A stretch of 64,000 nt of DNA from an uncultured virus (IMG/VR IMGVR_UViG_3300020463_003402) (IMGVR_UViG_3300020463_003402), one strand, 5' to 3'. Shown: positions 9,175 to 26,241, counted from the stretch's first letter. Numbers and translations are program-made. The notes: generated by a model from the letters alone, not told the origin.

Positions 9175-12100
9175 TAGGCTGGTCTCTCTTCTACACTAAC
9201 CAAACTCAGACGCTGGGTGTCAATAAATTGCTGCAGTAAACCGCGTTGCTGGTCTATTACGCGAAGCCGGTAGTAGAAGTTGTTTTGTGATGTGTTTGTG
9301 TCTGTAAAGGTGAAAGACCCACTGGTGATATCCCTTTGTATACAAGAGCTAGAGTCAGGGTCAGAATAATCATCCGCGTTAAAATCTATGTAAGTCATAG
9401 TCCCCGTGATATTCATTCTTTGAAGTTCAGACCAACCCGAACCGGTGAAGCTACGCTCAAGAATAAGGGTGGCGGAGGGAACGAAATCTTGATTAGTGGG
9501 ACAGGCATCACCTGAGGTAAATGTGCCTCGCCAACTTAAGCTACAGTTTACCGTTTTAGGGTTGCCGTTTGTAGTGAATGGACCAACCTCTACTGAAGGA
9601 TTTAGCGTCAGTAGTGTAGTGTCCCCACCATTTATCAACTGGCCAGTAGTTACAGACCCACCGAAATATTCGTTACCGTTAAGGTCTCGCCAACCTAAAG
9701 ATGCGTTCTGTTTTGTAAGCGCACTATAATTAGGCTCCGCGCCATTAAGGATAGGGGTCCCTTTCCAGATCCAAAGATTATCTGGACCAAAGCCATTAGG
9801 GTCTTCAATCTCCATAACATTTGGTGTAACAGTAACTTTTCTGGTTGAAACTAACGTTCCTCTAACCTCAACATCCGCGGTCATTACTAGCTTCTGAGAG
9901 GATGAGTCATAGGTAAAAAAGTCTTTCCCTGCTTTATTGGAGAACGTTAGGTTATCCATATAAAGCTTAATAGCGCTGACCCCGCTTCCCCCTGTTATCT
10001 CTAACCCTGTAAACGTTTGTTCTTCATCAACTACACCAAGGGTAAAGGTTGCTTCTAAGTTACCCATAGCGTTTTCTAACGCTTGCATGTAGCTGACGAC
10101 TGATACTGAATCACCATCTAGATTTTTTATTTTTAGCTCCGTGAAAGCACGGGCCAACGGTGCACCCATAACCCAATTACCTTCATCGTCTTCATAACCA
10201 ATCTGGACGATGTTATTTTCGACAATCTGGGTTTGAACAGTTTTATCGCCGACCTTACCCCTTAGCGCGATAATATCGAGGGAGTTAATCTTATTGGCAT
10301 CATCAAGACTTGACTGAGTTAGGATTAGGTTCTCATAGGTATCACCTAACGCGGTGGTTCTTTCATCCCAGATAGTCATATCCGCAAGCATTTGTGTAAT
10401 GCTGTCGCTTAAAGATTTACCCCAGTCGGCTCCTTCGTAATTAAGTACTTGGTCAACAACACTCCCAAGGTCTACTTGGAAGGCTTCTGTTGCCGTAATC
10501 TCTTTACGTACCCATGCGCCAAAACCTTCTTTAGAGGCTAAGCGGTACCAAATGTGGAAGACTTGCCCCTCCGCAGAGGAATAGAGCGTAATCGTGCTAC
10601 CGTTTGAATAGTCAGTAGCTTCGGTGATCACATTTTCACTATGATATTTGAACTCATAGTAACTAGAAGTCTTATCAACTTTCGGAGGCGTGAGCGTGAT
10701 AATGCCGCCTTCGTTAGTGATGGTTGGTTCTTCTGGTGGAGTTGGTGGTGCGGTAACCGTGAATGTTATCGTCTTAGGCTTGCCGTAGCTAAGTGTATTA
10801 GTAAAACCCTTAACTTTTACGACATAGCCTTCGGCTGCTCGTAAGAACCCGAATACTTGGCTACTGTCATATATCTTGTAACTAGAAATCGCGCTCTGGC
10901 CATCCGGCTTATAAAGCGTAATTTCATACCCATAGTTGTTATCATCCCACGTTACCAAATGGGGGTCTTCATCCGAGAAAACGTATTGATATCTTAAGTT
11001 CGTTATCTCTTGCGCTGGGTTACTTACTTGGAATGCTAGGGGACTTTGGAACAGGTCGGGGTAAAAGCCTCCGACAAGATCCACAACGCGTGCTGTAATA
11101 TATAAATCAGAAGGCAGTTCCTTACCTTCAACAGCAACCTCGAACTCGCTTTTAGGAATAATTAGCGAAGACTTTGCGGTCTTGGTCAAAAGGTGCACGC
11201 GGTTATCTGGGTCCACATCGTCGTATATCTTAAACTGAATACCCAACACACCATTTGTCTCAAGTAAGTTAACGCGGTTAACTTCTGTAGAGCCAAAGTC
11301 AAACATTACTTTACTGTCAATAGTTAAGGCGTAGTTCTCATAGCGAATAGCGATTTCTGGGGTTATACCCGCGTCTCTCAAATCCTCCGCAGAAACCATC
11401 GTTGTAGACCATTGCAGAACCGTCCAAGGGCTGGCGTTATCCCCTTGAGCACTGCGTACCTCTATTTGAATATCCCCAAGCTTTACGTTCTGAATTTCGA
11501 AATAAAGGTTGTTGGTTTTTGTGGTGTACTCTCGACCATTAACCGATTGTTCCGTAATGCGAACCTCAAAATAACCCCCAGGGGGTAATGGGGCCTCTAG
11601 CTCCCAACCAATCCATAAGTTTATCTGCTCTACACCACGAACCTGAATATGCTCTTCATCAACAACCCGAAGGTTTTTTACTTTGCGAACTTGCGGCCTC
11701 AGAAGAAACGAGTATTTAGGGGCTTCCGAAATAATAAGGTTGTCGGCATCCGTGTGTTTGTTGAGGTTTACTTCCTGACAAAAGAAGTCATAAAGCTCGG
11801 GGATGCTATCATTCTCATTTACCGAGATAATGCGCCATGGCTTGGGGAGACCTATAAGCTGGCCATTTCTTGAAGCTGAAACCACAACCGGCGCATATTT
11901 ATTAAATAGTGCAAGGTCCGGCATAGGTTGTTTTAGCTTCAACCTGTAAATAGGTTTACCAATGTCTGAAGAGAGCACATCCATTGTGAAATCGAAGTTT
12001 TCGTATTTCCCCATAACTTTTACGTTATAGGTCCCGCCCTCATCGAAATACACGGGGTCTCTAAGTGTGACCGCTTTGCTCTCTAACTTAACCGCTCTTC

Positions 12101-13745
12101 CCGAATACGCATGGCCTGTCTCGGGGTCCACAATATTGATAATATCCATAGGTTCAAATTCCATCCCTAATTGGGGTGCGGAAAAAGAAACCGTTCTAGT
12201 CTCTGTCGTTACGGAAGAGATATAAAACGTCATTCTACGTTTTACTTCCCAGATATCCGTCGCGCCTTTTGCATCAAACTCGTGGGTATTCAACCCATAT
12301 TTAAGGATAGAGTCCTCATCACGAATCTCGGCAACGTACTGTTGTTCATAATCTAGTGAGGCATCGATGTAGCTTGAAGTCACAGCATTGTGGCGCTCAG
12401 ATAGTGCCGAAAAATTATACGAGAATGGAGACCCGTCCGTTTCGGTCATGCACATTTCAGGTGTAACCCAAGCAACTGGTAGGCTTGGCAAATCGGCTAT
12501 AAATTTTATTTCGCCGGAGTCTTCTTCAATCGGCCTAGCGAAAGCACTACCTAAGACATAACGAAGAACGTCCCACCCATTTTGAGGCTCAGTCAATACC
12601 GCATTAAATGTATAACGAGGGCACTTTTCCTGTCCCGTAATAGGGTTGGTTAAGTTCTTTTCATTAGTCTGAAAGTCATAACCATCCGCGTACTTCGCCA
12701 TACGATAAACGGTATAACGATTAATCTTCACGCGGGGGTTTGCTTTTACTATGCCCCAAACAGGATTGGTAACCAGCTCATAAGCAATCCAAAATGGGTT
12801 GTCTGTAGTAGCCTTTTGAGCTTTAAACTGACCATCCCACGCCGAGCTCTCTTCATAAGTCTTGGCTTTAGGATCGTAATTGGAGGGTATTGAACACTTT
12901 ATCCCGTCATAATTGGCACTGACATTTGGGATATTTGTGAGCTGCTGGCCAAGAACCCCAACCACATGCATCATCGCAAGCCCAGGATGATACTCTAAAT
13001 CCGAGTCGCTATATTCCACACCGTTCTCGGTGTAGGCGTCACCAGATTTAGTTAACAGTTCATAGCTAGTCCAAGATATTGCCGCTATTTCTTCCTCATT
13101 AGAGTCTTCAGTCAAACGGGTAACTCTAATCTCAAACTGGTCATTAGGTTTAGTTCTGGGGAGGCGTATATTATGAACTTTTATAAAAGGACTGACCGTG
13201 GTTTTACCCGAAATAACCATAGAGCTAGAAACCCAGTTATCATCCAGTAGGTTTTTATACTCGATTCGAAAGTTAGCTCGGTGGGTTTTTGAACCATCAT
13301 CAGTGTAGCGAACTAACTGGGATACCGTAAAACGTAACTCAATCTCATCGAACCCCGACACTGTTGTAACCGTAGTTCGTGTCACCGGCGCGAGATACGC
13401 TAAGTTCGCAGAAACTTGCTGAATAATATTTTGTCCCCCTAAAGCAAACCATATAGGGGTTTGGCCTTCTTCAGGGTCGTCTTTTGCTGAAATCAAAGTA
13501 CCTTGCTCGAAACGCAGCATTAAGCTGGCGTTATCAAAGTTAGTTTGATTTAGGCTGTTGAATACTGGTGTATCGTCAATGAAGATATTGCGAAGCTTTT
13601 CTTCTGGGGTATCACCCACGACGCCGCCTATCGGTCCCTCGGATACTCCAAGGACGAATTCAAATGCGTCTGTAGAAAATAGGTTGTCCGCGTCATTAGA
13701 GGGTTTACTACCCCCTCCGCGGCCTTTGAACGTGTTATGCGCCAC
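9174..13745 (-). CDS. Central tail tip / host-specificity protein (lambda gpJ-like)
   Basis: GVSEGPIGG, TDNPFWIAYELVTNPVWG and PRYTFNAV gpJ motifs; 1523 aa. Confidence 0.9.
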   Translation of the reverse strand: MAHNTFKGRGGGSKPSNDADNLFSTDAFEFVLGVSEGPIGGVVGDTPEEKLRNIFIDDTPVFNSLNQTNFDNASLMLRFEQGTLISAKDDPEEGQTPIWFALGGQNIIQQVSANLAYLAPVTRTTVTTVSGFDEIELRFTVSQLVRYTDDGSKTHRANFRIEYKNLLDDNWVSSSMVISGKTTVSPFIKVHNIRLPRTKPNDQFEIRVTRLTEDSNEEEIAAISWTSYELLTKSGDAYTENGVEYSDSDLEYHPGLAMMHVVGVLGQQLTNIPNVSANYDGIKCSIPSNYDPKAKTYEESSAWDGQFKAQKATTDNPFWIAYELVTNPVWGIVKANPRVKINRYTVYRMAKYADGYDFQTNEKNLTNPITGQEKCPRYTFNAVLTEPQNGWDVLRYVLGSAFARPIEEDSGEIKFIADLPSLPVAWVTPEMCMTETDGSPFSYNFSALSERHNAVTSSYIDASLDYEQQYVAEIRDEDSILKYGLNTHEFDAKGATDIWEVKRRMTFYISSVTTETRTVSFSAPQLGMEFEPMDIINIVDPETGHAYSGRAVKLESKAVTLRDPVYFDEGGTYNVKVMGKYENFDFTMDVLSSDIGKPIYRLKLKQPMPDLALFNKYAPVVVSASRNGQLIGLPKPWRIISVNENDSIPELYDFFCQEVNLNKHTDADNLIISEAPKYSFLLRPQVRKVKNLRVVDEEHIQVRGVEQINLWIGWELEAPLPPGGYFEVRITEQSVNGREYTTKTNNLYFEIQNVKLGDIQIEVRSAQGDNASPWTVLQWSTTMVSAEDLRDAGITPEIAIRYENYALTIDSKVMFDFGSTEVNRVNLLETNGVLGIQFKIYDDVDPDNRVHLLTKTAKSSLIIPKSEFEVAVEGKELPSDLYITARVVDLVGGFYPDLFQSPLAFQVSNPAQEITNLRYQYVFSDEDPHLVTWDDNNYGYEITLYKPDGQSAISSYKIYDSSQVFGFLRAAEGYVVKVKGFTNTLSYGKPKTITFTVTAPPTPPEEPTITNEGGIITLTPPKVDKTSSYYEFKYHSENVITEATDYSNGSTITLYSSAEGQVFHIWYRLASKEGFGAWVRKEITATEAFQVDLGSVVDQVLNYEGADWGKSLSDSITQMLADMTIWDERTTALGDTYENLILTQSSLDDANKINSLDIIALRGKVGDKTVQTQIVENNIVQIGYEDDEGNWVMGAPLARAFTELKIKNLDGDSVSVVSYMQALENAMGNLEATFTLGVVDEEQTFTGLEITGGSGVSAIKLYMDNLTFSNKAGKDFFTYDSSSQKLVMTADVEVRGTLVSTRKVTVTPNVMEIEDPNGFGPDNLWIWKGTPILNGAEPNYSALTKQNASLGWRDLNGNEYFGGSVTTGQLINGGDTTLLTLNPSVEVGPFTTNGNPKTVNCSLSWRGTFTSGDACPTNQDFVPSATLILERSFTGSGWSELQRMNITGTMTYIDFNADDYSDPDSSSCIQRDITSGSFTFTDTNTSQNNFYYRLRVIDQQRGLLQQFIDTQRLSLVSVEERPA

Positions 13746-13777
13746 TTAAGCCCCAATATCGTCAATTTATCCAGATT

Positions 13778-14545
13778 TTAAAGTGTTCGTTGGTTTCTTA
13801 TACCATCAATCTCTCGACCCCCTCTTGGGGTCCAAGTAGTTTGGCCTACTTCCTGAGACTCACTATTGAAGTATAGAGTAGACCAAGAATCTCGTCGGTT
13901 GTCACTAACTTCATCCCAAACAACGTTAGTAAAATTTCTAATATCTGCAGAAGACCTACCGACACTTTCAATATTAAACTGGAACAAGTGGCCACCGAAC
14001 CTATGGCGCCCAAAAATCATCGCCACGGGGGTACCTGAACGTATGGTGTTAGGGTAAGACGTTGCGGTATTGCTGGTTTCTTCTGAAGTATTGTTCTCGG
14101 GGGTGGGCATGAGCTCCTGTGCTAGTCCCCCTACGATTAAGGCAAAACCAATATTAGCTAATAAAACATTAACACTTACCATACCCGCAGAGCCTAAAGC
14201 CGTAAATCCCACTGCAATTGGTGGGGCTATAATAGCTATCGATATTAAGATAATACCGACTACTATTTTTACCCACCCATTACTACCCCCACTACCTTGA
14301 AAACCTTTTAGTGTTTTAAGTGTTTGCTTGCGTCTTAGGGTCATTACCCCTTCATTAACGGCCTCATCTAAGTCTAACGTAGAGTTAATTCCCTCTATCT
14401 CACAAACATAGCGAACCTTAGCCTTACGCGGATTAAAAGGCTCTTGCAGTTTTAATGCTTCAAGGGCTTCCCTATAATTGGCCGCAACGGTTTTAATAAC
14501 CTTAGGGATAGTATCCCCAAACCCCACGAGATTAATTGTCACCAT
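13778..14545 (-). CDS. Tail assembly protein (lambda gpI-like)
   Basis: Hydrophobic Gly-rich middle; NTIRSGTPVAMIFGRHRFGG motif. Confidence 0.8.
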   Translation of the reverse strand: MVTINLVGFGDTIPKVIKTVAANYREALEALKLQEPFNPRKAKVRYVCEIEGINSTLDLDEAVNEGVMTLRRKQTLKTLKGFQGSGGSNGWVKIVVGIILISIAIIAPPIAVGFTALGSAGMVSVNVLLANIGFALIVGGLAQELMPTPENNTSEETSNTATSYPNTIRSGTPVAMIFGRHRFGGHLFQFNIESVGRSSADIRNFTNVVWDEVSDNRRDSWSTLYFNSESQEVGQTTWTPRGGREIDGIRNQRTL

Positions 14546-14867
14546 GAGGGACTACCTCCTCTAAAATTACACATTCAGACTTCACCGAGAATTTAACCAC
14601 TTTGTACTTCGACACTATCCAATGGTCCCATTCTGGAAGAGCTAAAAAGGTGTAGTAGTCTGATAAGCTAAGATTTGAAAAATCATCGGTATGTGAATGC
14701 CACGAGGCCACGGTGTCCTCGTAGTACTTTTCAAAATCTGACTCTGAGACTTCAAACTCATTCTTGGGATCTTCAGCTATGTTATCGACTTCAACAATTT
14801 CACCGGACTTTAGAATAAAGCCACAGCGCTCGGCTTTCTCATTCCATAAATCACTCAACTTTTTCAC
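14532..14867 (-). CDS. JAB/MPN-domain tail protein (gpK N-terminal half)
   Basis: ERCGFIL, WHSHT and SLSD JAB motifs; GTG start with GGAG SD. Confidence 0.8.
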   Translation of the reverse strand: MKKLSDLWNEKAERCGFILKSGEIVEVDNIAEDPKNEFEVSESDFEKYYEDTVASWHSHTDDFSNLSLSDYYTFLALPEWDHWIVSKYKVVKFSVKSECVILEEVVPHGDN

Positions 14868-15348
14868 TTTTAGCACTCCGTAATTTGGCACGCAGGTGAA
14901 TAGGTAAACCTTTATGCAGATTGTGAAGGGCTACAGCATCCGTGGTTTTTTGAATCTCTGGGTGTCGAACCACACGAACCACACGAAAACGCCATTTATC
15001 GTCATAGTCAACGATTTCACTTACGCGGCCTTGCAAATGATGAAGGATCTTTTGTCGTCCCACGTAGATAGCTACGTGGTTTACTACTTCACTTCCGACA
15101 ATTCGCATCATTAATACATCACCGAACCTCACTTTGTGCGGACAATTATTCGTGTCCTCAAAGCCCTCTCTTTCAAACAGCCTAGAAAAGAAATCTAAAT
15201 TCGGGTCTTGAATCCAGTTGTTCGGCCTCGCGTAATTCGTCAATTCCATCTGGTAACGAGTTTTATAAAAATCTCTAATTAGGGTGTAACAGTCTTGAAT
15301 ACCCTGTTCGTAGATATGGCCGCAAAAGGTGTTTAATTCTTTGATCAT
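14851..15348 (-). CDS. NlpC/P60 tail peptidase (gpK C-terminal half)
   Basis: QDCYTLIRDFY, NHVAIYVG, ILHH. Confidence 0.85.
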   Translation of the reverse strand: MIKELNTFCGHIYEQGIQDCYTLIRDFYKTRYQMELTNYARPNNWIQDPNLDFFSRLFEREGFEDTNNCPHKVRFGDVLMMRIVGSEVVNHVAIYVGRQKILHHLQGRVSEIVDYDDKWRFRVVRVVRHPEIQKTTDAVALHNLHKGLPIHLRAKLRSAKSEKVE

Positions 15349-15833
15349 ATTATTACCGTACTAAATTCGGGCTGGATATATCTGCGTGGGGGGAACTTAG
15401 TTTTATTACCGTCAGAAAGCCTTCTTAACTGAAGGGTGAGAATAGACGAGCTAATATTACTAGGGTGAGAAACATAAAAAACGTGGCGAGACGTTAGAGA
15501 GCCACCTTTTTCGTGAGGAAGTGCTTTGTAGCGTGTCACCACCGAATCTTCTAACAAGCCTTGGTTTAGATAATAACTGTATAGCCCCCCCTCGTTGGGG
15601 AGTGATAGGCTAGGACGGTTCTTCTCTCCGGTGGATTTATTGGATATACCAGAGACTTTAAAAGGTGAATGTACCCATGTGGAACCATTCCAGTCACGGG
15701 TTTCTCTATCCGTAAGACGAATAATAACCGGCTGACCATCGGTGTCTTCGATAATGATTTCTAAATAGGTGGTTAAGTCTTCAGGGGTCAGCGAATGCCG
15801 TTGAGACTGAATTTCTTGTGAAAGTTCTTTCAT
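15345..15833 (-). CDS. Minor tail protein (lambda gpL-like)
   Basis: PFKVSGIS..GEKNRPSLSL; synteny; ATG abuts GGAAATTGACG. Confidence 0.7.
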   Translation of the reverse strand: MKELSQEIQSQRHSLTPEDLTTYLEIIIEDTDGQPVIIRLTDRETRDWNGSTWVHSPFKVSGISNKSTGEKNRPSLSLPNEGGLYSYYLNQGLLEDSVVTRYKALPHEKGGSLTSRHVFYVSHPSNISSSILTLQLRRLSDGNKTKFPPRRYIQPEFSTVII

Positions 15834-15902
15834 CGTCAATTTCCCTCAATTTTCGCCTAGTATACCGAAAAGAGGAATAGATTGAATATTTTTCAAGCGC
15901 CC

Positions 15903-15935
15903 AAAAACAGAACACCCCAGCAAGGCTGAGGCGTT
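15903..15935 (-). terminator. Intrinsic terminator of the candidate sRNA
   Basis: AACGCCUCAGC-cuu-GCUGGGGUGUU stem followed by CUGUUUUU. Confidence 0.7.
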
Positions 15936-15981
15936 GATTTGGAAATTGACGATAATTAGGAGCCACATGGACTACTAACCG
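15903..15981 (-). ncRNA. Candidate ~80-nt trans-acting antisense sRNA complementary to the genome-wide start-associated motif
   Basis: Own promoter and terminator; contains CUCCUAAUUAUCGUCAAUUUCCAAAU, the reverse complement of ATTTGGAAATTGACGATAATTAGGAG. Confidence 0.7.
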
Positions 15982-15987
15982 AGGTCA

Positions 15988-16016
15988 ATACTACGGACTC
16001 ACAATTTTATTGTCAA
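15988..16016 (-). promoter_or_regulatory. Sigma70 promoter of the candidate sRNA
   Basis: TTGACA-17bp-TAGTAT with an AT-rich UP-like tract at 16017-16050. Confidence 0.75.
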
Positions 16017-16053
16017 TAATATTGTTTAAATTAATTAATAAATATTTTATCAA

Positions 16054-16440
16054 TTAAAGTCCTACCTCACGCAACGTAATAGTAAAAGGTTCAATAGCGC
16101 CATCCCCCCCTGTAATACCTTCCGGTAGCTCAAGGGGTTGGTCAAACCTTACCACGACATTCCCGAATTTGTGGTGTTGAAAAATAAACTCTTTCCAAGT
16201 TTCGTGACGTTGGTAAAACTCATCCAAATGATCAGCACTATACCGACGTTCCTTTGGACCTAGAAGTTGGGGATTTTCAAAATATTTCATTACTGAATAT
16301 TTCAATGTAAATATCCTGCTAACAGGGGCCGTAGGCTTAGTTACATAGTCCCATTGATTACCTAAGGTCAACTTAGTTGAGCGGTCCCTATAACGATGAG
16401 AGACCTTATGGTAAATAAAATTAAACTGTTCCAATGACAT
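16054..16440 (-). CDS. Distal/minor tail protein (lambda gpM-like)
   Basis: After the tape measure gene; LDEFYQRH..WKEFIF; size. Confidence 0.7.
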   Translation of the reverse strand: MSLEQFNFIYHKVSHRYRDRSTKLTLGNQWDYVTKPTAPVSRIFTLKYSVMKYFENPQLLGPKERRYSADHLDEFYQRHETWKEFIFQHHKFGNVVVRFDQPLELPEGITGGDGAIEPFTITLREVGL

Positions 16441-19400
16441 TATTTAGTCCTCATTGCTACCTGTGCTACCAGTGAAGCAAGTTCACCGTCTCTCGCGATA
16501 TCATCACCAATAATAGCTTTCACATCGTTTGGCCCCATAGGTGGTAATTGCTTCTCACTTACCACGTAAACATTAACAACGCCGCCGCCTTCACTATTTG
16601 ATGCCGACATAGCCTGGGTAGCATTGCTATTCATCATTTCTTTATCTTTGACACTATTAGGGTCTGCAGAGTTGAGTGCTTTGACCGTCTCTAGACCTAA
16701 AGCATCTACTGCCGCTTTGCGAAGAACAAACTCACCACGACTCACTTTGGCATAGGTTGAATCTCGAGTAGACATCCCACTGGTAATTAATCCCCCAGTC
16801 TTATAACTACCGGCTATTACTGGACCACCAGTAAACATCCCGCCACCAAAGAAACCACCCATTCCGCCGCCCATACCTCCACCCATCAGGCCGAGACCGG
16901 AGAAGAGTGACATTATTAACTGGTTAGCTAAAGCGCGGGTCGCGATATTGGCCATTTCCGTAAGTATGCTTACCCCTAATGACCTGAATGCGTCTTCTGA
17001 GTCACTGGCCCCTGTAATGATATCCGCGAACGTTGCTCCAAAAGCATCACCTAAACCTTTAGCAGCTTCCGTCGCTTCCATCGTCATTTGGGTTAAGACG
17101 TCAAAGTTTTCGTAACTACTATTAACTTCATCAACAATATAGGAACCCGCGTTAGCGAACTGAGAAGCTACACCTTTGCCTCCTCGACCTCCGTAGGTTT
17201 CATCAACCCCTTGCTCCCCCAGAGGAGAATACTGCGTGCCATAAATCGCGGCTTGAGTTTGGCGAAACTGGTCACTTTCATAAATACTCTGATTTATCTT
17301 TCGAACCGTGTCCCCCATCTGGTCTCTAAATTCCCGTAGGCCACGATCCGCTTCTTTAGAAGCTTGTGAAAGGTCCTCAAGATTAGAGTCAAGACTAATA
17401 TTTTGCCCTTCAATTCCTTCAATAGACTTTCTTGTTTTCGCTTTAGAGCGGCCATCCGTTAGCGCGGGGTTATCAACAATGGTTTCTTGAAGATAATTAG
17501 CAAAATCCATTAAGGCTTCTTTCGCTTGTCGAACGGCTTGTTCTTCTAAAGCGATCGCCTCTTTTTCTAGTTGTACTGCTTGGCTCTCAATATCGTTAGC
17601 AATACCCGCGGCACGCTCTCGGGTTTCGTCGGTGTAGCCTTCATTGTTTGAGATATCAATATAGCGCTGGGCTTCATAGCGGGTGTCTTCCGCTTGGGTT
17701 CTTAGTTTTTCAGCTTCTTGCCGTGCTTTGGCCAAAGCATTGTTTATCTCACCTTGTTCCGTACCAATAACATCAGTTAAGAGACGCGATAACTCATCAT
17801 CATCACCAAGCAATTTAAAATCACGAACGTCTAGGTCTTGTTGTTCACCAATAGAACGTTCGAGACGACTTCTTGCAAAGGTCTTTGCTTGTATCGTATC
17901 GAATTCTTGGTTCCCTAAGGTAACCCGAGCATTTAGCTCTCTGTCTCGCTGAGCAACAGAGACAGGAGAGTTACCATCAATGGCCGCAAAGAGAGTGTCT
18001 TGCTCATTGGCCACACGCTCTCGCTCAAGGTTTAGTTCTTGGAGCTTAGTTTTTATTTCATCTGAAGTTTCTCGGTCCGTAACTTGGCGAAGTTGATCAC
18101 GAAGTACATCCAGCTCTTTATCTAACTCCGCCAGTCGTGCGGGGTAATATAAATTAGCATCCGGCCTAGCATCCTTCGCAACCGATTGTAGTGAGCGCTC
18201 AAGCTTACCTCTCGCTTCCCCTGCGGCTTGGTAATAGCCTTGTTCCTGAAGCACAAGTCTAGGGTTAGAAACCCCTTGCGCTTCTAATTCCGCAATGGCC
18301 TCTTTCTCATCTTCTAGCAAGGCTTTTATCTGGTCACGAACCAGTGTATTTATGTCCTTGAATGTGCCTAAGTAGTCACTGGTCTCGTAGTCTTTGTTTT
18401 TCTCTGTTAACGCATTGATTTCCTCGCTGGTCTCAGCGATATCATTTAACAGTTCGCGACGATTCTTAATTACCACTTGGGCAATTTTTCGCTCTTCCTC
18501 TTTGATACTCGGGTCTAACGAATCGTATTGTTTCTGGTTGTTCTCCACTTCCAGCAACGTGTTCGCTCGATTAAGCATTTCTTGAGCAAGGTTGTTTATA
18601 TACTCTTCGGCTTTATCCCGTGCATCACCGGATAGGCCAAATTGCTGCATTAGGGAATCTAGTTCTTGCGGAGATTGATTTAGGATATTAAATAACTGGC
18701 TTTGCAATGCTTGTGTTTGCGTGCGTGCCTCTTGTGCACGGCCATAAGCACCGGCCTCTTGAGGGTTAATGTTGCGAATAAGCTCGTTGATACCCGCAAG
18801 ATCATCCCCAAAATTCGGCAGCGCTGTATCTATCAGACTTCTATAAACATTTCCTCGACTTGCAAAACGGCCACGTTGGGTCGCGGTTTTACCGCTACCA
18901 ACGCTAACATCCGTTCCCTTCTCTTCGGCTAGAAGTCTGCGTTCAGATGAATCGAAAAAGCCGATTGAAAACAACTCATTTAATTTAGCTTCCGAGTTGT
19001 CAACAAAGTTATTCCGGTTTTGGTTCTGAAGGTACCCCACTCCATCCCGAGTAGCGTCTTCAAACTCCTTCATCTTGGTAATAAGCTTGTCGTAGCTGTC
19101 TATCGAATCATCAATGTACAACCCTTGCTGGCGAAACTCATCGTTAAGACGACGTATCTCGCGCTGAAGAGACTCATTATTCGTAAGGTCATTTTGCTTT
19201 AAGATAAGCGTATCGATAGCCGACCCAACTTTTTTAAGCTGGTCTTCATAAACCTTAGTTTCAGAGGTACCACGGTTTAAGGCTGCTTGCGTGCTATCAA
19301 CACGGTCATTAGCTCGGGCTCGGCCATCGAGATACTGATATCCGTAAACCCCTGCGGTACCTACGGCAGTAGCAAGACCAACCCCAGGTATTGCACGAGC

Positions 19401-21761
19401 GGCGAACCCCGCCGCGGTACCTAATCCCCGACCAGTGGCAACCTTAGCAAGCCTAGAGATTGTGCTACCTTTACCTTTTCCTCCGGTCAGCATATCCACG
19501 CCGCCAAGTAACCCCGCGCCCAGACGAAGAACGCTCCTTGTGGCCAGCACGCCACCTAGTATCGAGGCCGGTACTGCTAAAGCGCTTAGAATGGGGCCGA
19601 GGTCTCTTACCACTGAAAGAAAGTCAGCGGTCTTTTCAGTAAGCTTGGTAATGGTGTCTAGTAGTGGCTCCATTGACTCGTAGACAATCGATTTACTGAT
19701 AGAGCCCAAACGGTCTAACTGGTTAGCTAATGCTTCCATCTGCGTGTCGTTCGCACGGGCCGCAGAACCACCAATACGCATTTGTTCGCTTAGGTCTTCC
19801 GCTACGCTAATGTTATTTGCAAAAGCTCCGTATGCAGATGCTGCACGCACTTCCATACTTTCCATAGCATCACGGACAGTAAAACCACTCTCGGCCAGCG
19901 TTTTCATTACTGGTATCAAACCGTGAGTCGTAATATCTAGGTCAGACATTGAGAGCCCGAGGTTGTGTACAATCTCGGTAAAAGACTCTGACGGTTTCTG
20001 CAGGGATATAATAATTTGTCGAAGGCCGGTACCAAGGGTCGAACCAGCTCGGATACCCGAGTTAGCCATTGCGCCCAGTGCGGAGACCGTTTCTTCAAAC
20101 GTCACATTAGACTGGGCCGCTAAGTTACCCGAGTACTGAAGACCTAAGGCAAGTTTATCAAGGTTCAATTTGGAGCTGTTCACAGCCGTAGTCATTTTGT
20201 CTACTATGTTGATCATCTGCGAACTGTCTTTATTAAATACCCCTAATGTTGATGTGGCGAGGTCAACGGCACTTTTTAAGTCAGAACCTACCGCGGTAGC
20301 AAAGAGCGTAACTCCCTCTATCGCATTCTGGATATCATTTTGACCTAAGCCAGCCTGACCAAGCGTTATGGCCGCATCTGCGACGTCCGTGGCTGTAAAC
20401 TTAGTTTTTTCAGAAACATCAATAAGGTTTTTAGACAGCTCTTCCATTTCCTCATTGGTGAGGTTCACAATGGATTGAAGTTGTTTGAACTGTCTATCTA
20501 GCTCAGTTGAGAACGTCGCGGACGTTGCAAGACCACCAACACCGGCGCCCATCACAGCGTAGTTACGAAGTAACTGCCCTTGGTTTCTGAATAGCTGGGC
20601 TCCGCCATCTAAGCGCTGATTGGTTTGCGATTGTCTAATCTGTTCAATACGACGAGCGACACGCTGTTGTTCGGTTACTTGTGTCGAGGGCCTCTGGGCT
20701 TTTTGTGCTGCTTTTTCAGCACGCTTGGCCTCGGCCGCAGCATCAGCGAATTCTTTTAATCGTGCTTTGGCAAGCTTGGTTGATTCTTCAAGTTCTCTTA
20801 GCGCTTTACCCGCGTTATTCTCTAGCGTTTTATTTCTCGTCTCCGGCGCGAGACTGGACTTCAGCGCTTTACGGGCGGCATTCTCGTAAACCTTATTCCG
20901 AGCAATAGCGTCCTCTAGTTGAGTTCTGTTCAACGTAGAGATTTGAGACGCTTTAACCTTCTGCCCTTTAGCTACGGTAGGGTTTAATCGAAACTCATCA
21001 TCATTGTAGGATTTAAGGGTTCGTCTTACAGTTCGAGCTTGCGTGTCTTGCGCTACTTCTGCTTTTTTAGAAGCGTCGGTAAATTTCTTTAGTCTTGCTT
21101 CCGCAGCGACTAAGCCTGACTCGAGCTTCTTAAGCGCATTTTGAGCTTTCTTCTCAAGACTGGTATCACCTAAGCGAATCGCATCGTTAAGCGCACTTTG
21201 TGCTCCACTACGTAAAAGCTTTTGCCTTTGAATCCCTGTGCGCAATTCACTTTCGTTTAACGTGTTTACTCGAGACTTATAGAGCTGGCTTCCTTTTGGA
21301 ACGGTAGGGTTCTTACGAAATTGAAGGTCGTAATAGTCAGCAAGGTCCTTTGCTTGTTTCTTGGCTTGCGCTTGGGCCTGTTTAGTGAAGCGGCCTGTAA
21401 TTTCCCCAAAGGCTTGATTCAGCCCTTTCACTAATTGCTGTTGCTGTTGAGGGTTGAGTCCCTTCCCAAGGGTTAAGGCAATTTGATCTAGTAACGCACG
21501 CGCATTCTTTTGGTTCTCACTTAAGATTTTGCGCTGAGTGTTAACTTCATTCTTAGCGTTCTGGGCGAGTTCAGAGCGCCCCTGTGGGGTGTCCTTAATG
21601 GCCTTAATGTTGGCTTGAAGTTGTTGACTAGCGGCTTGTGTGACCCGCTCTAGCTTTTCAAACTCGCGAGTTAGTTCCTCGATTACCTTTTTGGATTTAG
21701 GATCGACGGTAAAATTAAGTAAGGTATTTCTAATTGTATTGGATGCATTGCTGCCGGCCAT
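16440..21761 (-). CDS. Tape measure protein
   Basis: ~1770 aa helical; TMP core (KTKFTATDVADAAITLGQAG, MANSGIRAGSTLGTGLR). Confidence 0.95.
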   Translation of the reverse strand: MAGSNASNTIRNTLLNFTVDPKSKKVIEELTREFEKLERVTQAASQQLQANIKAIKDTPQGRSELAQNAKNEVNTQRKILSENQKNARALLDQIALTLGKGLNPQQQQQLVKGLNQAFGEITGRFTKQAQAQAKKQAKDLADYYDLQFRKNPTVPKGSQLYKSRVNTLNESELRTGIQRQKLLRSGAQSALNDAIRLGDTSLEKKAQNALKKLESGLVAAEARLKKFTDASKKAEVAQDTQARTVRRTLKSYNDDEFRLNPTVAKGQKVKASQISTLNRTQLEDAIARNKVYENAARKALKSSLAPETRNKTLENNAGKALRELEESTKLAKARLKEFADAAAEAKRAEKAAQKAQRPSTQVTEQQRVARRIEQIRQSQTNQRLDGGAQLFRNQGQLLRNYAVMGAGVGGLATSATFSTELDRQFKQLQSIVNLTNEEMEELSKNLIDVSEKTKFTATDVADAAITLGQAGLGQNDIQNAIEGVTLFATAVGSDLKSAVDLATSTLGVFNKDSSQMINIVDKMTTAVNSSKLNLDKLALGLQYSGNLAAQSNVTFEETVSALGAMANSGIRAGSTLGTGLRQIIISLQKPSESFTEIVHNLGLSMSDLDITTHGLIPVMKTLAESGFTVRDAMESMEVRAASAYGAFANNISVAEDLSEQMRIGGSAARANDTQMEALANQLDRLGSISKSIVYESMEPLLDTITKLTEKTADFLSVVRDLGPILSALAVPASILGGVLATRSVLRLGAGLLGGVDMLTGGKGKGSTISRLAKVATGRGLGTAAGFAARAIPGVGLATAVGTAGVYGYQYLDGRARANDRVDSTQAALNRGTSETKVYEDQLKKVGSAIDTLILKQNDLTNNESLQREIRRLNDEFRQQGLYIDDSIDSYDKLITKMKEFEDATRDGVGYLQNQNRNNFVDNSEAKLNELFSIGFFDSSERRLLAEEKGTDVSVGSGKTATQRGRFASRGNVYRSLIDTALPNFGDDLAGINELIRNINPQEAGAYGRAQEARTQTQALQSQLFNILNQSPQELDSLMQQFGLSGDARDKAEEYINNLAQEMLNRANTLLEVENNQKQYDSLDPSIKEEERKIAQVVIKNRRELLNDIAETSEEINALTEKNKDYETSDYLGTFKDINTLVRDQIKALLEDEKEAIAELEAQGVSNPRLVLQEQGYYQAAGEARGKLERSLQSVAKDARPDANLYYPARLAELDKELDVLRDQLRQVTDRETSDEIKTKLQELNLERERVANEQDTLFAAIDGNSPVSVAQRDRELNARVTLGNQEFDTIQAKTFARSRLERSIGEQQDLDVRDFKLLGDDDELSRLLTDVIGTEQGEINNALAKARQEAEKLRTQAEDTRYEAQRYIDISNNEGYTDETRERAAGIANDIESQAVQLEKEAIALEEQAVRQAKEALMDFANYLQETIVDNPALTDGRSKAKTRKSIEGIEGQNISLDSNLEDLSQASKEADRGLREFRDQMGDTVRKINQSIYESDQFRQTQAAIYGTQYSPLGEQGVDETYGGRGGKGVASQFANAGSYIVDEVNSSYENFDVLTQMTMEATEAAKGLGDAFGATFADIITGASDSEDAFRSLGVSILTEMANIATRALANQLIMSLFSGLGLMGGGMGGGMGGFFGGGMFTGGPVIAGSYKTGGLITSGMSTRDSTYAKVSRGEFVLRKAAVDALGLETVKALNSADPNSVKDKEMMNSNATQAMSASNSEGGGVVNVYVVSEKQLPPMGPNDVKAIIGDDIARDGELASLVAQVAMRTK

Positions 21762-21780
21762 CGTCAATTTCCCCTAATTG

Positions 21781-22152
21781 TTACCCAAAAACGGCTCTTG
21801 CTCGGGCCTCAGCTTCTATTTCATCTTTTGGTACCGTGCTCGTAGTTTTACGTCTGGGCTTGCCTGAACCACTTTCTTTTTTACCGAAGATAGTCCCTGC
21901 GGCATTCAATAACGTCACATACTCTTGGGTCATTGTGACAGTCTTTAATCCAAGTGTTAGCTTGGTTTTAACTTTGATATCTTGGTTGCTATGAGACCAA
22001 AATATCTTCTGTAGCTGGCTGGGTACAGTTTCGAAAACAAAACACAACTGCTCTTCAAACGACAGTTTTAGGTACCAAGAATTGAAGACCTCTAAGTGGT
22101 CTGCTTCTTCTTCATTCGTTGCTTGGCTCTTTGTAGAGCCTTCATAAAAAAA
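21781..22152 (-). CDS. C-terminal extension of the tail assembly chaperone (gpGT-like, -1 frameshift)
   Basis: T-TTT-TTT slippery heptamer at 22146-22152; -1 frame open to 21781. Confidence 0.75.
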   Translation of the reverse strand, partial: FFYEGSTKSQATNEEEADHLEVFNSWYLKLSFEEQLCFVFETVPSQLQKIFWSHSNQDIKVKTKLTLGLKTVTMTQEYVTLLNAAGTIFGKKESGSGKPRRKTTSTVPKDEIEAEARARAVFG

Positions 22153-22439
22153 GTCTCAACGTGCTCCGATACCCATTCCAGCAAGTCCAGTATTTGGTCT
22201 GGGTCTGCCTTCATTCTATTAATATCGAAATTCTGGGTTATTCGGCCAGTCTCATTTCTTTCAGATAGGAGTTCAGTAATTACACTCGCTCGAACGTCGG
22301 AATTTAAGAGGATTTGTTCGAGTTCTTCCGCATTTCTAAAGTACCCTGTGATGGTATTGAGTAGCGCAAAACTCATGAAAACTTCTTTATCTTCGCCGTT
22401 AACGCTGATGTTAAAGGTTACAGAAGGGTTATCACTCAT
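22092..22439 (-). CDS. Tail assembly chaperone (gpG-like)
   Basis: Between major tail and tape measure genes; contains the slippery site. Confidence 0.8.
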   Translation of the reverse strand: MSDNPSVTFNISVNGEDKEVFMSFALLNTITGYFRNAEELEQILLNSDVRASVITELLSERNETGRITQNFDINRMKADPDQILDLLEWVSEHVETFFMKALQRAKQRMKKKQTT

Positions 22440-22452
22440 CGTCAATTTCCTT

Positions 22453-22476
22453 AAAAAAGGCCTCCGAAGAGGCCTT
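22453..22476 (-). terminator. Intrinsic terminator after the major tail gene
   Basis: AAGGCCTC-TTCG-GAGGCCTTTTTT. Confidence 0.8.
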
Positions 22477-22501
22477 CTAAACAGTTTTTAAACCCAGGGT
22501 T

Positions 22502-23332: not shown

Positions 23333-23387
23333 CGTCAATCTCCAAATTTTAGGTTATTATTGATACCTTGCTGAAGGAGGATGAAAC

Positions 23388-25063: not shown

Positions 25064-25066
25064 GGC

Positions 25067-26232: not shown

Positions 26233-26241
26233 GGTTGTTCC

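Follow-up and report, generated by a model that had tools for sequence, protein, structure and literature searches.

The window, the whole stretch of 64,000 nucleotides from an uncultured virus (IMGVR_UViG_3300020463_003402) that was analysed, carries a compact unit (15903–16016, minus strand) in a gap between tail genes. The gap lies between a gene for a 128-residue protein and a minor-tail-like gene, the homologue of which in the cultured Pseudoalteromonas phage KB12-38 is annotated as a minor tail protein. An earlier note on this DNA had placed the unit between 'gpM-like' and 'gpL-like' genes; its position between tail genes was confirmed, while the two names serve as positional labels and not as evidence of homology, because the flanking products are a phrog_34212 protein and a minor-tail-like protein. 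The features of the locus are as follows.

16054–16440, minus strand: gene 5' of the unit, 128 residues, phrog_34212, directly after the tape measure gene
16017–16053, minus strand: AT-rich tract resembling an UP element, directly 3' of the stop codon of the 128-residue gene
16011–16016, minus strand: −35 hexamer TTGACA of promoter P1 (promoter scan)
15988–15993, minus strand: −10 hexamer TAGTAT of P1, preceded by a 17-nt spacer (promoter scan)
15903–15981, minus strand: predicted sRNA of 79 nt, from 7 nt past the −10 hexamer through the end of the U tail
15954–15980, minus strand: 5' hairpin with 3' arm CUCCUAAUU (fold)
15936–15953, minus strand: unpaired seed AUCGUCAAUUUCCAAAUC of 18 nt, the complement of GAUUUGGAAAUUGACGAU (fold)
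15911–15935, minus strand: terminator hairpin of 11 pairs (terminator scan and fold)
15903–15910, minus strand: U-rich tail CUGUUUUU (terminator scan)
15859–15886, minus strand: candidate promoter P2, TTCAAT-16-TATACT, between the terminator and the next gene (read from the sequence)
15831–15846, minus strand: start site of the next gene, GGGAAATTGACGATG, a possible cis partner of the seed
15345–15833, minus strand: gene 3' of the unit, minor-tail-like, 164-residue product, 162 codons from the ATG at 15833

The minus-strand promoter that had been described, TTGACA-17-TAGTAT with an AT-rich tract upstream, was found as claimed at 16016–15988. P1 is a 10/12 match and joint best among the 17 promoter-like sites in a scan of 8000–27000; such sites are not enriched overall, since shuffled sequences gave 28.7. 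The intrinsic terminator of the unit ranks top of 28 in a 19-kb scan. The whole unit folds with −22.7 kcal/mol (z = −3.26; one of 200 shuffles folds equally well), and the weak 5' hairpin, open seed and terminator of the earlier description are present in this fold at 15981–15903, with a mean unpaired probability of 0.94 for the seed core. The unpaired stretch and the 3' arm of the hairpin together form the reverse complement of ATTTGGAAATTGACGATAATTAGGAG (plus strand, 15938–15963). The seed also complements the upstream AUUU typical of the consensus start site of the genome, and the arm CUCCUAAUU complements the AAUUAGGAG-type Shine–Dalgarno (SD) sequence of a second class of start sites (class 2, with the SD after the motif core). 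Covariance models run against the stretch gave no Rfam family at the unit; the sole match, a serC leader elsewhere, is at chance level (12.7 bits against a gathering cut-off of 35, E = 6.2). No conserved ORF was found on either strand of the unit in the lineages compared, and a small-protein reading was dropped because the 61-codon ORF across the unit (15966–15781) is not conserved, being cut short after 11 codons in L027.

RNA libraries from several marine and aquatic studies include parts of the locus; of the 20 runs listed, 17 are recorded as RNA and contain part of the stretch. This evidence consists of assembled contigs, which prove neither strand, ends nor level and may reflect DNA carry-over. 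The X2 contig ends at 15981 plus two letters, i.e. within 2 nt of the predicted start, has a depth of 127.8 compared with 3.6–24 for its neighbours and continues without interruption from 15981 to 15104, past the terminator into the next two genes. The X3 contig (15732–15967; depth 26.9 compared with about 3–7 for its neighbours) also crosses the terminator, and the X9 contig (15924–16086) spans the promoter at low depth. X2 is uncovered over 15982–16170 and X10 covers only 15592–15902; holes in contigs of this kind prove nothing.

The start motif and its complementarity to the seed

The start motif comprises an SD sequence (GGAA or GGAG), a spacer (ATTGACG) and ATG. The form GGA(A/G)ATTGACGATG is found in both genome arms, and about 40% of the phage genes bear the motif. 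The core, ATTGACGAT, has 36 exact copies in the window; with at most one mismatch there are 56 copies compared with 14.6 expected, a count that none of 100 shuffles reaches. All except three of the exact cores (33) precede a start codon within 6–44 nt that opens at least 40 codons. The ATG overlaps the final two core bases in 19 copies, and the start lies at offset 7, 9 or 10 from the core start in 27 of the 33 ORF-linked copies. These counts uphold the statement in the earlier note that the seed is the reverse complement of the start motif of about 35 genes. Its further statement, that a single copy opposes the local genes, also proved correct: 35 of the 36 copies are co-oriented with the genes around them, and the sole opposing copy (15945–15953) lies in the sRNA seed. 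The three copies without a following ORF start are this one, 13572–13580 and 53542–53550. Some copies of the motif carry an upstream inverted repeat. A reading of the motif as a −35 box was dropped because no conserved −10 hexamer can follow within the variable first codons. The cores at gene starts and the two co-oriented exceptions are given below.

337–345, minus strand: class 2, 106-residue gene adjoining the endolysin gene
1770–1778, minus strand: class 2, 130-residue gene (1363–1755), longest predicted sRNA duplex (about 42 nt)
13572–13580, co-oriented: inside the gpJ-like gene, exception with no ORF start
13758–13766, minus strand: class 2, gpJ-like gene of 1523 residues (GTG at 13745)
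21760–21768, minus strand: tape measure gene
22438–22446, minus strand: tape-measure chaperone gene
23331–23339, minus strand: 276-residue gene (phrog_28493), 19-nt contiguous seed match
27907–27915, minus strand: major head protein gene
29520–29528, minus strand: 388-residue head-region gene
31056–31064, minus strand: portal gene
32871–32879, minus strand: class 2, large terminase gene (terL)
32963–32971, plus strand: first gene of the plus-strand arm (162 residues)
36294–36302, plus strand: copy whose gene is doubtful (GTG 28 nt further on, 46 codons)
36725–36733, plus strand: 239-residue gene
38282–38290, plus strand: 102-residue gene
39177–39185, plus strand: 128-residue gene
39594–39602, plus strand: 101-residue gene
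41798–41806, plus strand: 51-residue gene
41946–41954, plus strand: 155-residue gene
44044–44052, plus strand: class 2, 75-residue gene
44724–44732, plus strand: 275-residue gene
45590–45598, plus strand: 299-residue gene
46744–46752, plus strand: 92-residue gene
47079–47087, plus strand: 267-residue gene
48016–48024, plus strand: 461-residue gene (DUF3560)
50265–50273, plus strand: 145-residue gene
50901–50909, plus strand: 116-residue gene
51306–51314, plus strand: 279-residue gene
53542–53550, minus strand: co-oriented exception, at codons 4–6 of an HTH repressor-like gene (53242–53562)
53783–53791, plus strand: ATP-dependent DNA ligase gene
56173–56181, plus strand: 230-residue gene
56878–56886, plus strand: class 2, 113-residue HTH regulator-like gene
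59172–59180, plus strand: 363-residue gene
60324–60332, plus strand: 5'–3' exonuclease-like gene

The three targets quoted previously as having the SD after the core are present, at 345 (a lysis-region gene), 32879 (terL) and 44044. For comparisons we used record G001, which is near-identical to the window. At least 13 contiguous seed pairs are possible at 34 of 106 gene-start windows of G001 compared with 21 of 1000 random windows. With a 35-nt probe, which has a high background, gene starts did not stand out at duplex-energy cut-offs of −15 or −18 kcal/mol, and contiguous pairing was used as the measure of reach instead. The argument that target variants are compatible with G:U wobble stands in two lineages (ten wobble-compatible and no transition mismatches in G001; 22 and four in G002) and fails in a third, G003, which shows no such bias (nine wobble, eight transition and 12 transversion mismatches). 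Much of the bias consists of GGAA-to-GGAG changes, which also improve the SD.

The unit and its putative chaperone in related phages

Relatives were found with the 128-residue protein as an anchor. The unit occupies the same tail-gene gap in every motif-bearing relative, including KB12-38, with neighbouring-protein identities in the unit-bearing relatives of 95, 90, 87, 66, 64, 47, 46, 41 and 36%; a relative that keeps the motif and lacks the antisense locus, which would have spoken against the proposal, was not encountered. In KB12-38 the unit lies on the complementary strand of MF098558.1, at about 13,770–13,930. The unit is absent from motif-less relatives (30–35% identity) and from phage Lumi, in which the motif is at background counts (2, 9 and 6 copies of ATYGACGAT in the motif-less relatives and 5 of TYGACGAT in Lumi). 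A megablast search of 14500–17500 against the phage collection gave no match, and the 128-residue protein had no relative among the genome contigs searched, so no host was assigned in that way. G001, G005 and G006 are closely related, and the counts are therefore not independent.

Sequence divergence leaves the promoter hexamers, the 5' hairpin, the open seed and the terminator in place. Unit and flanking coding DNA have identities of 95 versus 78/81, 84 versus 66/66, 89 versus 63/72 and 72 versus 59/57% in the four nearest lineages; the unit is better conserved than its flanks in these four of seven comparisons, and the other three are level at about 55–59%. The AT-rich tract before the −35 hexamer is seen in all lineages. 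The −35 hexamer in other lineages is TTGACA, TTGACC, TTGACG, TTTACA or TTGACT and the −10 hexamer is TAATAT, TAATCT or TACTAT, with diverged spacers of 16–18 nt. The promoter rule is passed by eight of ten lineage sequences (L027 and L049 fail), with the −10 hexamer ending 25–34 nt before the seed core. All 11 sequences that were folded are predicted to have a 5' hairpin, which in L030, L032 and KB12-38 is formed by unrelated sequence. The terminator shows compensatory double changes in five of its 11 pairs across lineages (RNAalifold consensus). In the ten-sequence alignment the invariant block coincides with the seed core, the unpaired probability of which is 0.84–0.94 in nine of 11 folds; part of the core is predicted to be paired in KB12-38 (0.41) and also in L049.

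The seed changes together with the motif, as the earlier note had suggested checking, and follows the version of each lineage (ATT or ATC; GGAAATTGACG versus GGATTGACA). Records with a seed ending in GUCAAUUU (G001, G003 and G005) have ATTGACGAT only, with no ATC among 115 copies of ATYGACGAT. Those with a seed ending in GUCGAUUU have ATC or both forms (19 ATC and 17 ATT in G002; eight and one in G004), a mixture that is expected with this seed because G pairs with either C or U. The motif of KB12-38 is GGATTGACA, with 27 copies of which 25 are at ORF starts, and its seed, AUUGUCAAUCCAAAU, tracks a 2-nt deletion and a G-to-A change. Seed and motif are both changed likewise in L049. Each of six genomes contains exactly one ORF-less copy against the local genes, always in this gap. 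The co-variation could alternatively arise if the reversed copy were one member of a motif family that is kept uniform by gene conversion.

Outside the window, at 11502–12014 of G001, lies a gene for a ProQ-like protein (PF04352, 48.9 bits with a cut-off of 27; match to ProQ, PDB 5nb9, E = 1.7e-6). A ProQ/FinO gene is present in all four complete motif-bearing records (G001, G003, G005 and G006) and in KB12-38, and in none of the three complete motif-less genomes (G008, G009 and Lumi); G002 and G004, which are 81% and 45% complete, yielded none. Searches with the ProQ-like protein, as a single sequence and in an alignment, led to no records outside the clade and therefore gave no independent sample. 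The unit has the predicted features of a FinO/ProQ-type RNA, namely a terminator stem-loop and a single-stranded 3' tail. From this co-occurrence, the likely helper of the RNA is the phage-encoded ProQ/FinO-domain protein and not necessarily Hfq.

Interpretation and comparison with known systems

These comparisons lend strong support to the core of the earlier interpretation, a putative RNA of about 80 nt, running from promoter to terminator, whose seed is antisense to a start motif common to some 35 genes. We favour, with moderate confidence, an interpretation of the unit at 15903–16016 as a trans-acting sRNA directed against start sites and probably assisted by the ProQ/FinO-domain protein. 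Host RNA polymerase would start at the sigma-70-type promoter at about 15981 on the minus strand, and a non-coding RNA of about 79 nt would end at the strong intrinsic terminator (15903). Its seed would recognize a start-site label made up of the upstream AUUU, the SD (GGAA or GGAG), the fixed spacer AUUGACG and the A of AUG. Pairing in trans with start regions would block binding of the 30S subunit, and long duplexes may also invite RNase III; at class 2 starts (terL, gpJ-like and lysis-region genes) pairing would extend further into the 3' arm of the 5' hairpin. The phage protein may bind the terminator end of the sRNA and speed pairing, a role modelled on that of FinO for FinP and of RocC for RocR. 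We infer pairing in vivo, repression and dependence on the chaperone from these features. The need for one sRNA to titrate about 40 mRNA species counts against action in trans.

This marine phage is temperate, as indicated by an integrase and by provirus records, which makes a threshold brake on its translation the most likely role: leaky prophage messages, or as a variant incoming relatives bearing the same label, would be silenced, with escape once transcription surges. This role is the least certain step of the explanation. The immunity, carrier-state and timing functions and the 'master switch' of the earlier note might likewise follow from such pairing, and the core in the HTH repressor-like gene makes a simple immunity model harder to uphold. 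No tRNA was found at the end of the G006 prophage, and a serine recombinase was seen in an island adjoining this provirus, not in the phage. An invertible tail-fibre segment, from the reversed motif to the copy at 1778, was rejected: all relatives have one orientation and the phage has no invertase.

A role in cis, which is compatible with action in trans and which we judge unlikely, would make the unit a leader or insulator. RNA from P1, or read-through from the tape-measure operon, would fold the anti-motif onto the start of the next gene about 100 nt downstream and shut its translation, transcripts from P2 without the anti-motif would be translated, and the outcome would be a low dose of distal tail proteins or their silence in lysogens. 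Consistent with this, the X2 and X3 contigs cross the terminator (15981–15104 and 15732–15967), although a contig cannot show one molecule spanning both partners, and in the fold of 15981–15815 (−50.5 kcal/mol, z = −3.85, equalled by none of 200 shuffles) the seed pairs with GGGAAAUUGACGAU around the terminator hairpin. P2 is conserved (TATACT in the window-like, L027, L045, L030 and L032 lineages, TATAGT in L049), and the L049 seed matches 15 nt of the adjacent start site without exception. Between the seed and the next start there is nevertheless a strong intrinsic terminator with covarying pairs; the open seed extends over the upstream AUUU that characterizes the genome consensus, and a cis device would require no promoter of its own and no ProQ/FinO protein from the phage. 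Moreover, the seed fits the genome consensus better than the adjacent start in G003, where GGAAACTGACG mismatches the seed and 27 other starts match, and in KB12-38, where the adjacent site shares only GGATTGAC with the seed and others match 16 nt. Since the contigs read through and the read-through RNA folds onto the next start, a cis role may coexist or compete with that in trans. An sRNA with few true targets is less probable still: the set would be the class 2 genes with 20–42 nt of complementarity (the 130-residue gene after the tail-fibre block, the 106-residue lysis-region gene, the gpJ-like gene and terL), and the 13–19-nt matches elsewhere would be a by-product of a motif kept, for example, for ribosome recruitment. 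The longest duplexes do fall at class 2 sites (130-residue gene, −40.6 kcal/mol over about 42 nt; gpJ-like gene, −39.0 kcal/mol), the 130-residue gene is the best of 40 with the 5' segment alone (−23.4 compared with a median of −11.6), and the gene at the same position in G003 is by far the best there (−20.0, next −12.3) despite a different 5' hairpin sequence. The predicted single-stranded part, however, complements the class 1 consensus including the upstream AUUU, whereas the 5' hairpin sequesters the complement of class 2; the ATT/ATC pattern extends to every start site; KB12-38 and G004 have no such outlier and the best target in G002 is the gpJ-like gene. The same-position proteins of the window and G003 are not homologous: their identification as orthologous holins (130 and 133 residues) was rejected, with no similarity in BLASTP, no hit in PHROGs and a hydrophobic segment in just one of the two.

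It is very unlikely that the reversed copy acts on the plus strand or as DNA (as the start of a mini-ORF, a decoy for a factor or a protein-binding site), with the minus-strand promoter and terminator belonging solely to the tail operons. TAGGAG-CCAC-ATG GAC TAC TAA follows the motif on the plus strand, and short ORFs occur at this place elsewhere (TTG or GTG starts; MIE* in L030; 9–25 codons in L049, KB12-38 and L032). Their lengths vary (3, 3, 3, 25, 10 and 9 codons) with no common peptide and L045 has no start codon there, and a conserved mini-ORF was rejected on these grounds. The promoter scan gave no promoter-like site nearby on that strand, on which a G:U pair of the terminator stem becomes a C-A mismatch; the T-rich tail follows the hairpin on the minus strand only, in all lineages, and the base that varies among the window-like lineages sits in the hairpin loop. 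The least credible reading is that the unit is an operon terminator with a restart promoter and that the reversed motif, left over from an inverted duplication long ago, has been carried along without function. Recombination is frequent at phage gene starts, chance alone could produce an inverted copy of such a region, and the 5' part of the sRNA does resemble an antisense of the start region of the 130-residue gene. Against this, no block of the gap is better conserved than the seed core, though the flanking genes fall to 56–59% nucleotide identity, the seed follows the motif changes in at least three directions, and it is kept unpaired between two hairpins of changing sequence.

Returning to the sRNA acting in trans, we suggest, as a tentative and rather doubtful extension, that a clade-wide start label and a two-part reader (the complementary sRNA and a dedicated ProQ/FinO protein) together form a global RNA brake or immunity system, in which one kind of molecule would silence protein synthesis of the phage itself and of its relatives. 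The phage regulatory RNAs known to date each have one or a few target genes, whereas here the genome looks organized around one RNA, with a start label on genes of every functional class, an RNA with a complementary seed and a phage FinO/ProQ chaperone. If the pairing is real, translation, in addition to transcription, would be a global control point of the lysis–lysogeny decision or of superinfection immunity, phage-encoded FinO/ProQ proteins would gain a concrete RNA partner, and the unit would offer a natural one-guide switch for translational control of a whole phage. KB12-38 is cultured and parts of the locus are in RNA libraries, and the hypothesis is therefore directly testable.

The sar RNA of P22 and the CI RNA of P4, both antisense, occlude the ribosome-binding site of one of the phage's genes and aid immunity. 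The c4 RNA of P1 and P7, in the section cited here, is likewise a phage antisense RNA that shuts off a ribosome-binding site in a phage message and contributes to immunity (PMC12197685). These RNAs differ from the present unit in having one or two targets each and in being cis-encoded or processed from an operon leader. We know of none that is matched to a genome-wide start motif or that has a co-encoded FinO-domain protein.

Other parallels involve FinO-domain chaperones, for phage-encoded members of which the part of a review cited here describes no RNA partner (PMC9977716). In F-like plasmids, as outlined there, one element codes for a chaperone with a FinO domain and for FinP, a small antisense RNA that has a terminator hairpin; FinP prevents translation by pairing with the target's ribosome-binding site (PMC9977716). 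The phage unit too would combine an antisense RNA carrying a terminator hairpin with a co-encoded FinO/ProQ-domain protein. FinP is cis-encoded with essentially one target, traJ, on a plasmid, whereas the phage RNA would act in trans on about 40 starts that share a motif, and its link to the chaperone is drawn from co-occurrence. The unit is 0.1–45 kb away from its putative targets and shares the strand of the local genes, unlike FinP-type cis encoding, and it is therefore RocR-like (trans) and not FinP-like. RocR of Legionella pneumophila, according to the same part of the review, is a trans sRNA with a terminator bound by the FinO-domain protein RocC, and pairs at the translation starts of several mRNAs, which it thereby represses (PMC9977716). 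It has four chromosomal targets in one pathway, whereas the putative targets of the phage RNA include early, replication, structural and lysis-region genes, and here one phage encodes targets, RNA and chaperone. Rfam gave no sequence relationship between the unit and RocR.

The start motif itself is an analogue, not a member, of the SAS/ESAS elements of Cluster K mycobacteriophages, a short asymmetric SD-containing motif located a few nucleotides before many starts (PMC3203893). In the passages cited, SAS occur in one orientation and are conserved beyond pairing with 16S rRNA, the proposed partner being 'RNA or protein' (PMC3203893), and their role was still called ill-defined in 2024 (PMC11373665). 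In this literature, as cited, an inverted repeat precedes about half of the SAS, and no antisense RNA is proposed for them. Here 33 of 36 copies precede an ORF start, 35 of 36 are co-oriented and some have an upstream inverted repeat. SAS differ in their consensus, GGGATAGGAGCCC, and are confined to the non-structural arm, whereas the present motif occupies both arms; their hosts are Actinobacteria. To our knowledge, FinO/ProQ proteins are not known in that phylum. Adephagia has a single reversed SAS copy, in a 432-nt gap, which is predicted to lie in a hairpin loop of a gene-sense RNA. This copy suggests, by analogy, that the same principle may have arisen independently, and real pairing in the present phage would supply a testable answer to the question of SAS function raised in 2011.

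Architecture of the unit and of the start-site motif

The candidate RNA gene lies in a gap (15840–16053) flanked by two minus-strand tail genes; on the minus strand this gap comprises, in order, an AT-rich tract, the promoter P1, 79 nt of predicted sRNA, a second promoter-like site and the start of the next gene.

Features of the gap and its flanks
16054–16440, minus strand: upstream gene, 128 aa, phrog_34212, placed after the 1775-aa tape measure gene
16016–16011 (TTGACA) and 15993–15988 (TAGTAT), minus strand: P1 promoter with a 17-nt spacer, 10/12 match
3′ end at 15903, minus strand: predicted sRNA, 79 nt, closing with an 11-pair G+C-rich hairpin and CUGUUUUU
15859–15886, minus strand: second promoter-like site, TTCAAT-16-TATACT, directly 3′ of the terminator and before the next tail gene
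After the second promoter-like site, minus strand: start of the next gene, GGGAAATTGACGATG, as read from the sequence
3′ of the gap, minus strand: downstream gene, 164 aa, minor-tail-like

The promoter, seed and terminator described in the earlier note were confirmed. P1 is joint best among 17 promoter-like sites in 8–27 kb, although the match by itself is weak proof because such sites are not enriched there (17 versus 28.7 in shuffles). The terminator ranks first of 28 terminator calls in the same scan. In its predicted fold (−22.7 kcal/mol, z −3.26) the 79-mer leaves 18 nt unpaired between a 5′ hairpin and the terminator, and an Rfam search returned no family resembling this RNA. The TATACT of the second promoter-like site is conserved in most lineages; this site may be a restart promoter for the distal tail genes.

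The motif core, ATTGACGAT, occurs in 36 exact copies in the window, 33 of which precede a start codon opening at least 40 codons, in agreement with the claim that the seed is antisense to the start motif of about 35 genes. With at most one mismatch there are 56 matches (14.6 expected), a number reached in none of 100 shuffles. The ATG overlaps the core in 19 copies, where GGA[A/G]-ATTGACG-ATG sets the SD apart from the start by a constant 7-nt spacer, and lies 2–3 nt farther downstream in eight; in six (class 2) the core is followed by a separate SD and a start 22–28 nt from the core start. Class 2 includes a gpJ-like gene as well as terL and lysis-region genes, for which this order had been claimed. 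The motif consensus reaches upstream to aAAUUUGGAA. Only the copy at 15945–15953 (plus strand) runs against the local genes, as the earlier note had observed, so that a minus-strand RNA bears the motif complement: the 18 unpaired nt are the complement of GAUUUGGAAAUUGACGAU, and the 3′ arm of the 5′ hairpin extends it into AAUUAGGAG, the class 2 form. The virus record G001 (81.4 kb with direct terminal repeats, 100% identical to the window over 1201 nt) has ∼106 crude gene calls and 43 copies of the core, of which 40 lie at ORF starts. Three adjacent small genes (window ∼62,700–63,400, plus strand; G001 22262–22937) share another context at their starts, (G)GAGCAAGA(C/G)(G/A)TG, possibly a second, local motif for start sites.

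Conservation of the unit and co-variation with the motif

The unit is very likely to be a real, selected RNA gene. Relatives were collected from virus and metagenome collections with the neighbouring 128-aa protein as anchor, which avoids bias towards the RNA. The unit is present at the same gap in every relative at 95, 90, 87, 66, 64, 47, 46 and 36% identity and in the cultured Pseudoalteromonas phage KB12-38 (41% identity; 50.6% in TerL). Relatives at 30–35% identity (G+C 54–57%) and Xylophilus phage Lumi have no unit, their flanking genes adjoin and their motif counts are at background level. No lineage examined keeps the motif while lacking the antisense locus, the case that the earlier note had set against its own reading.

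Changes among close lineages fall in the promoter spacer, start region, hairpin loop and terminator loop, with the seed unchanged. Seven comparisons were made with lineages farther away. In the four nearest, the unit exceeds the adjoining coding DNA in conservation (95 versus 78/81%, 84 versus 66/66%, 89 versus 63/72% and 72 versus 59/57%), and in the other three it is level with it (∼55–59%). The seed core is the invariant block in an alignment of ten sequences; the consensus terminator has 11 pairs, with compensatory double changes in five. Every lineage is predicted to fold as a 5′ hairpin, open seed and terminator, the 5′ hairpins of lineages L030, L032 and KB12-38 being unrelated in sequence to that of the window. 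A promoter-like site satisfying the scan rule is found in eight of ten lineage sequences, with the −10 ending 25–34 nt before the seed; the two sequences that fall outside the rule, L027 and L049, carry weaker hexamers. Two coding candidates were rejected: a small protein from a 61-codon ORF over the unit, which is not conserved, and a plus-strand mini-ORF after the reversed motif, which varies from three to 25 codons and has no start codon in L045.

The seed follows the motif in related phages, as the earlier note had proposed to check. Records with the seed ...GUCAAUUU carry only ATTGACGAT (ATYGACGAT copies: G001 43, G003 29 and G005 43, with no ATC), and those with ...GUCGAUUU have ATC or both (19 ATC and 17 ATT in G002, eight and one in G004). 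This asymmetry is expected from RNA pairing, since a G in the seed accepts C or U and an A only U. The mixed copies of G002 could also reflect a mosaic of two phage types, as the arms of this 65-kb record differ (structural mostly ATCGACGAT, ATC; early mostly ATTGACGAT, ATT); a G-containing seed could still address both types of such a mosaic. The KB12-38 motif is tttGGATTGACa(nn)ATG (27 copies, 25 at ORF starts) and its seed, AUUGUCAAUCCAAAU, tracks both the 2-nt shortening and the G-to-A change; in L049 seed and motif have changed together in the same way. An ORF-less copy against the local genes occurs exactly once per genome in six of six genomes, always in this gap.

Proposed pairing in trans or in cis, and a candidate helper protein

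At least 13 contiguous pairs to the seed are formed by 34 of 106 gene-start windows in G001 versus 21 of 1000 random windows, with similar ratios in the other genomes. Departures of start sites from the seed complement comprise 63 wobble-compatible changes, 15 transition mismatches and 25 transversions (173 copies in five genomes, three of them close kin). The argument from G:U wobble is thus only partly supported: the bias stands out in G001 (10, 0 and 2, respectively) and G002 (22, 4 and 3) but absent from G003 (9, 8 and 12), and a GGAA to GGAG change improves the SD too. The longest predicted duplexes are at class 2 sites. The 130-aa gene at 1363–1755, the first after the tail-fibre block, has ∼42 nt paired with the sRNA (−40.6 kcal/mol), and in G003, where the 5′ hairpin is a different one, this hairpin pairs best with a non-homologous gene at the same position. 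This first gene may be a main target or may hold a trace of an inverted duplication from which the RNA gene arose.

Site of longest sRNA complementarity, including the 5′ hairpin, at the gene immediately following the tail-fibre block
Window 1756–1790, minus strand
G003 76589–76640, plus strand

We lean towards pairing of the seed in trans with the shared start sites, which is the best-supported mechanism; the sRNA may serve as a translation brake or an immunity factor. An effect in cis, by which read-through RNA silences the next gene, is plausible and may coexist with it: in the predicted fold of a transcript 15981–15815 (−50.5 kcal/mol, z −3.85) the terminator hairpin is bracketed by pairing between the seed and the start of that gene, so that such RNA would be self-silenced. 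The cis effect leaves unexplained why, in G003 and KB12-38, the seed follows the consensus of the genome and not the site next to it, why the unit is equipped with a promoter of its own and a strong terminator and why the phage keeps a FinO-domain protein. Judged by sequence, the HTH repressor-like gene at 53242–53562 (minus strand), with a core at 53542–53550 (codons 4–6, after its own SD and GTG), would likewise be reachable by the sRNA, a complication for a simple model of immunity.

The ProQ/FinO-domain protein (170 aa; PF04352, 48.9 bits, cut-off 27; PDB 5nb9 ProQ match, E 1.7e-6) is encoded outside the window at G001 11502–12014 on the minus strand (L002:11502–12014). The family is present in all four complete motif-bearing records (G001, G003, G005 and G006) and in KB12-38; it was not found in the partial motif-bearing records G002 (81% complete) and G004 (45% complete), in the three complete motif-less genomes (G008, G009 and Lumi) or in the fragment G007. 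Pattern scans of IMG/VR place the protein in this clade only. Excerpts of PMC9977716 describe FinO-domain proteins, also known from phages, as binding terminator hairpins and 3′ tails and accelerating antisense pairing at ribosome-binding sites (FinP/traJ, Inc/repZ and RocR with four mRNAs). We infer that the phage ProQ-like protein is a helper of the sRNA.

Of 20 listed runs (20 rows, ten studies), 17 are recorded as RNA and contain part of 15300–16500, the evidence being assembled contigs, which do not prove strand, ends or levels and may include DNA carry-over. Run X2 yields an 880-nt contig of depth 127.8 (neighbouring contigs 3.6–24) that covers 15104–15981 and ends there with two spare letters, 5–7 nt past the −10; in this run 15982–16170 has no contig cover. 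The deepest contig of X3 (26.9; others ∼3–7) spans 15732–15967 and, like that of X2, runs across the terminator, and an X9 contig (15924–16086, depth 5.4) spans the promoter. These contigs fit an active start at ∼15981 with some read-through and do not demonstrate a discrete 79-nt species.

Life style, host and comparison with known systems

G001 encodes a tyrosine integrase, an HTH repressor-like gene and a GH108 endolysin; the integrase and repressor-like gene, together with the provirus record G006, indicate that the phage is temperate. The provirus is followed by a separate island, and no tRNA gene was found at their junction.

Island beside the provirus
L081 1736–10777 (G006 81.7–90.8 kb): P4-type integrase, helicase, Drt3a/Drt3b antiviral reverse transcriptases, serine recombinase and a further tyrosine recombinase-like gene

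The nearest cultured relative, KB12-38, has a Pseudoalteromonas host, and the listed RNA runs are labelled marine, seawater or aquatic metagenomes. A proteobacterial host fits the sigma-70-type promoter and the ProQ family, which is not known outside Proteobacteria. The unit is unusually testable because a cultured phage–host pair carries it; the only paper found for KB12-38 makes just passing mention of this phage.

Literature searches found no multi-target anti-start-site RNA by title or abstract, and the relevant portions of a 2025 phage sRNA review (PMC12197685) describe none from phages. The motif resembles the Start-Associated Sequences (SAS) of Cluster K mycobacteriophages, the partner of which was left open as 'RNA or protein' in passages of the 2011 paper (PMC3203893) and the role of which is still termed ill-defined in an excerpt from 2024 (PMC11373665). 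The same 2011 passages (PMC3203893) record a single reversed SAS copy, away from gene starts, in each of four K1 phages. In Adephagia the sole reversed copy (L083 38683–38695; record ∼58,682–58,694) lies in the 432-nt non-coding gp92–gp93 gap, downstream of a strong terminator. Folding of the gene-sense RNA predicts that CCUCCUAUCC is exposed in a 10-nt hairpin loop (126 nt, −68.4 kcal/mol, z −6.5). This modelled hairpin is possibly an anti-SAS RNA analogous to the sRNA of the window, a lead rather than a result.

About eight or nine early genes in the plus-strand arm have a C-rich hairpin end and a AATTAACTT(TT) box 10–20 nt before the start motif, and KB12-38 has CGGGGTAACGTTACCCCG (14–20 copies) and AATTAAACTAAAA ahead of GGATTGAC; both arrangements resemble the 'extended SAS' of Cluster K (inverted repeat and putative promoter).

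Examples of the hairpin end and AATTAACTT(TT) box in the window
36700–36733, plus strand
47050–47087, plus strand
47990–48024, plus strand
50240–50273, plus strand
51280–51314, plus strand

By analogy, the closest counterparts of the unit would be RocR/RocC and FinP/FinO, in which, too, a small RNA ending in a terminator pairs at ribosome-binding sites with the help of a FinO-domain protein. The unit described here stands apart from them in being encoded in trans, carried by a phage and matched to a label that is found on genes of all classes.
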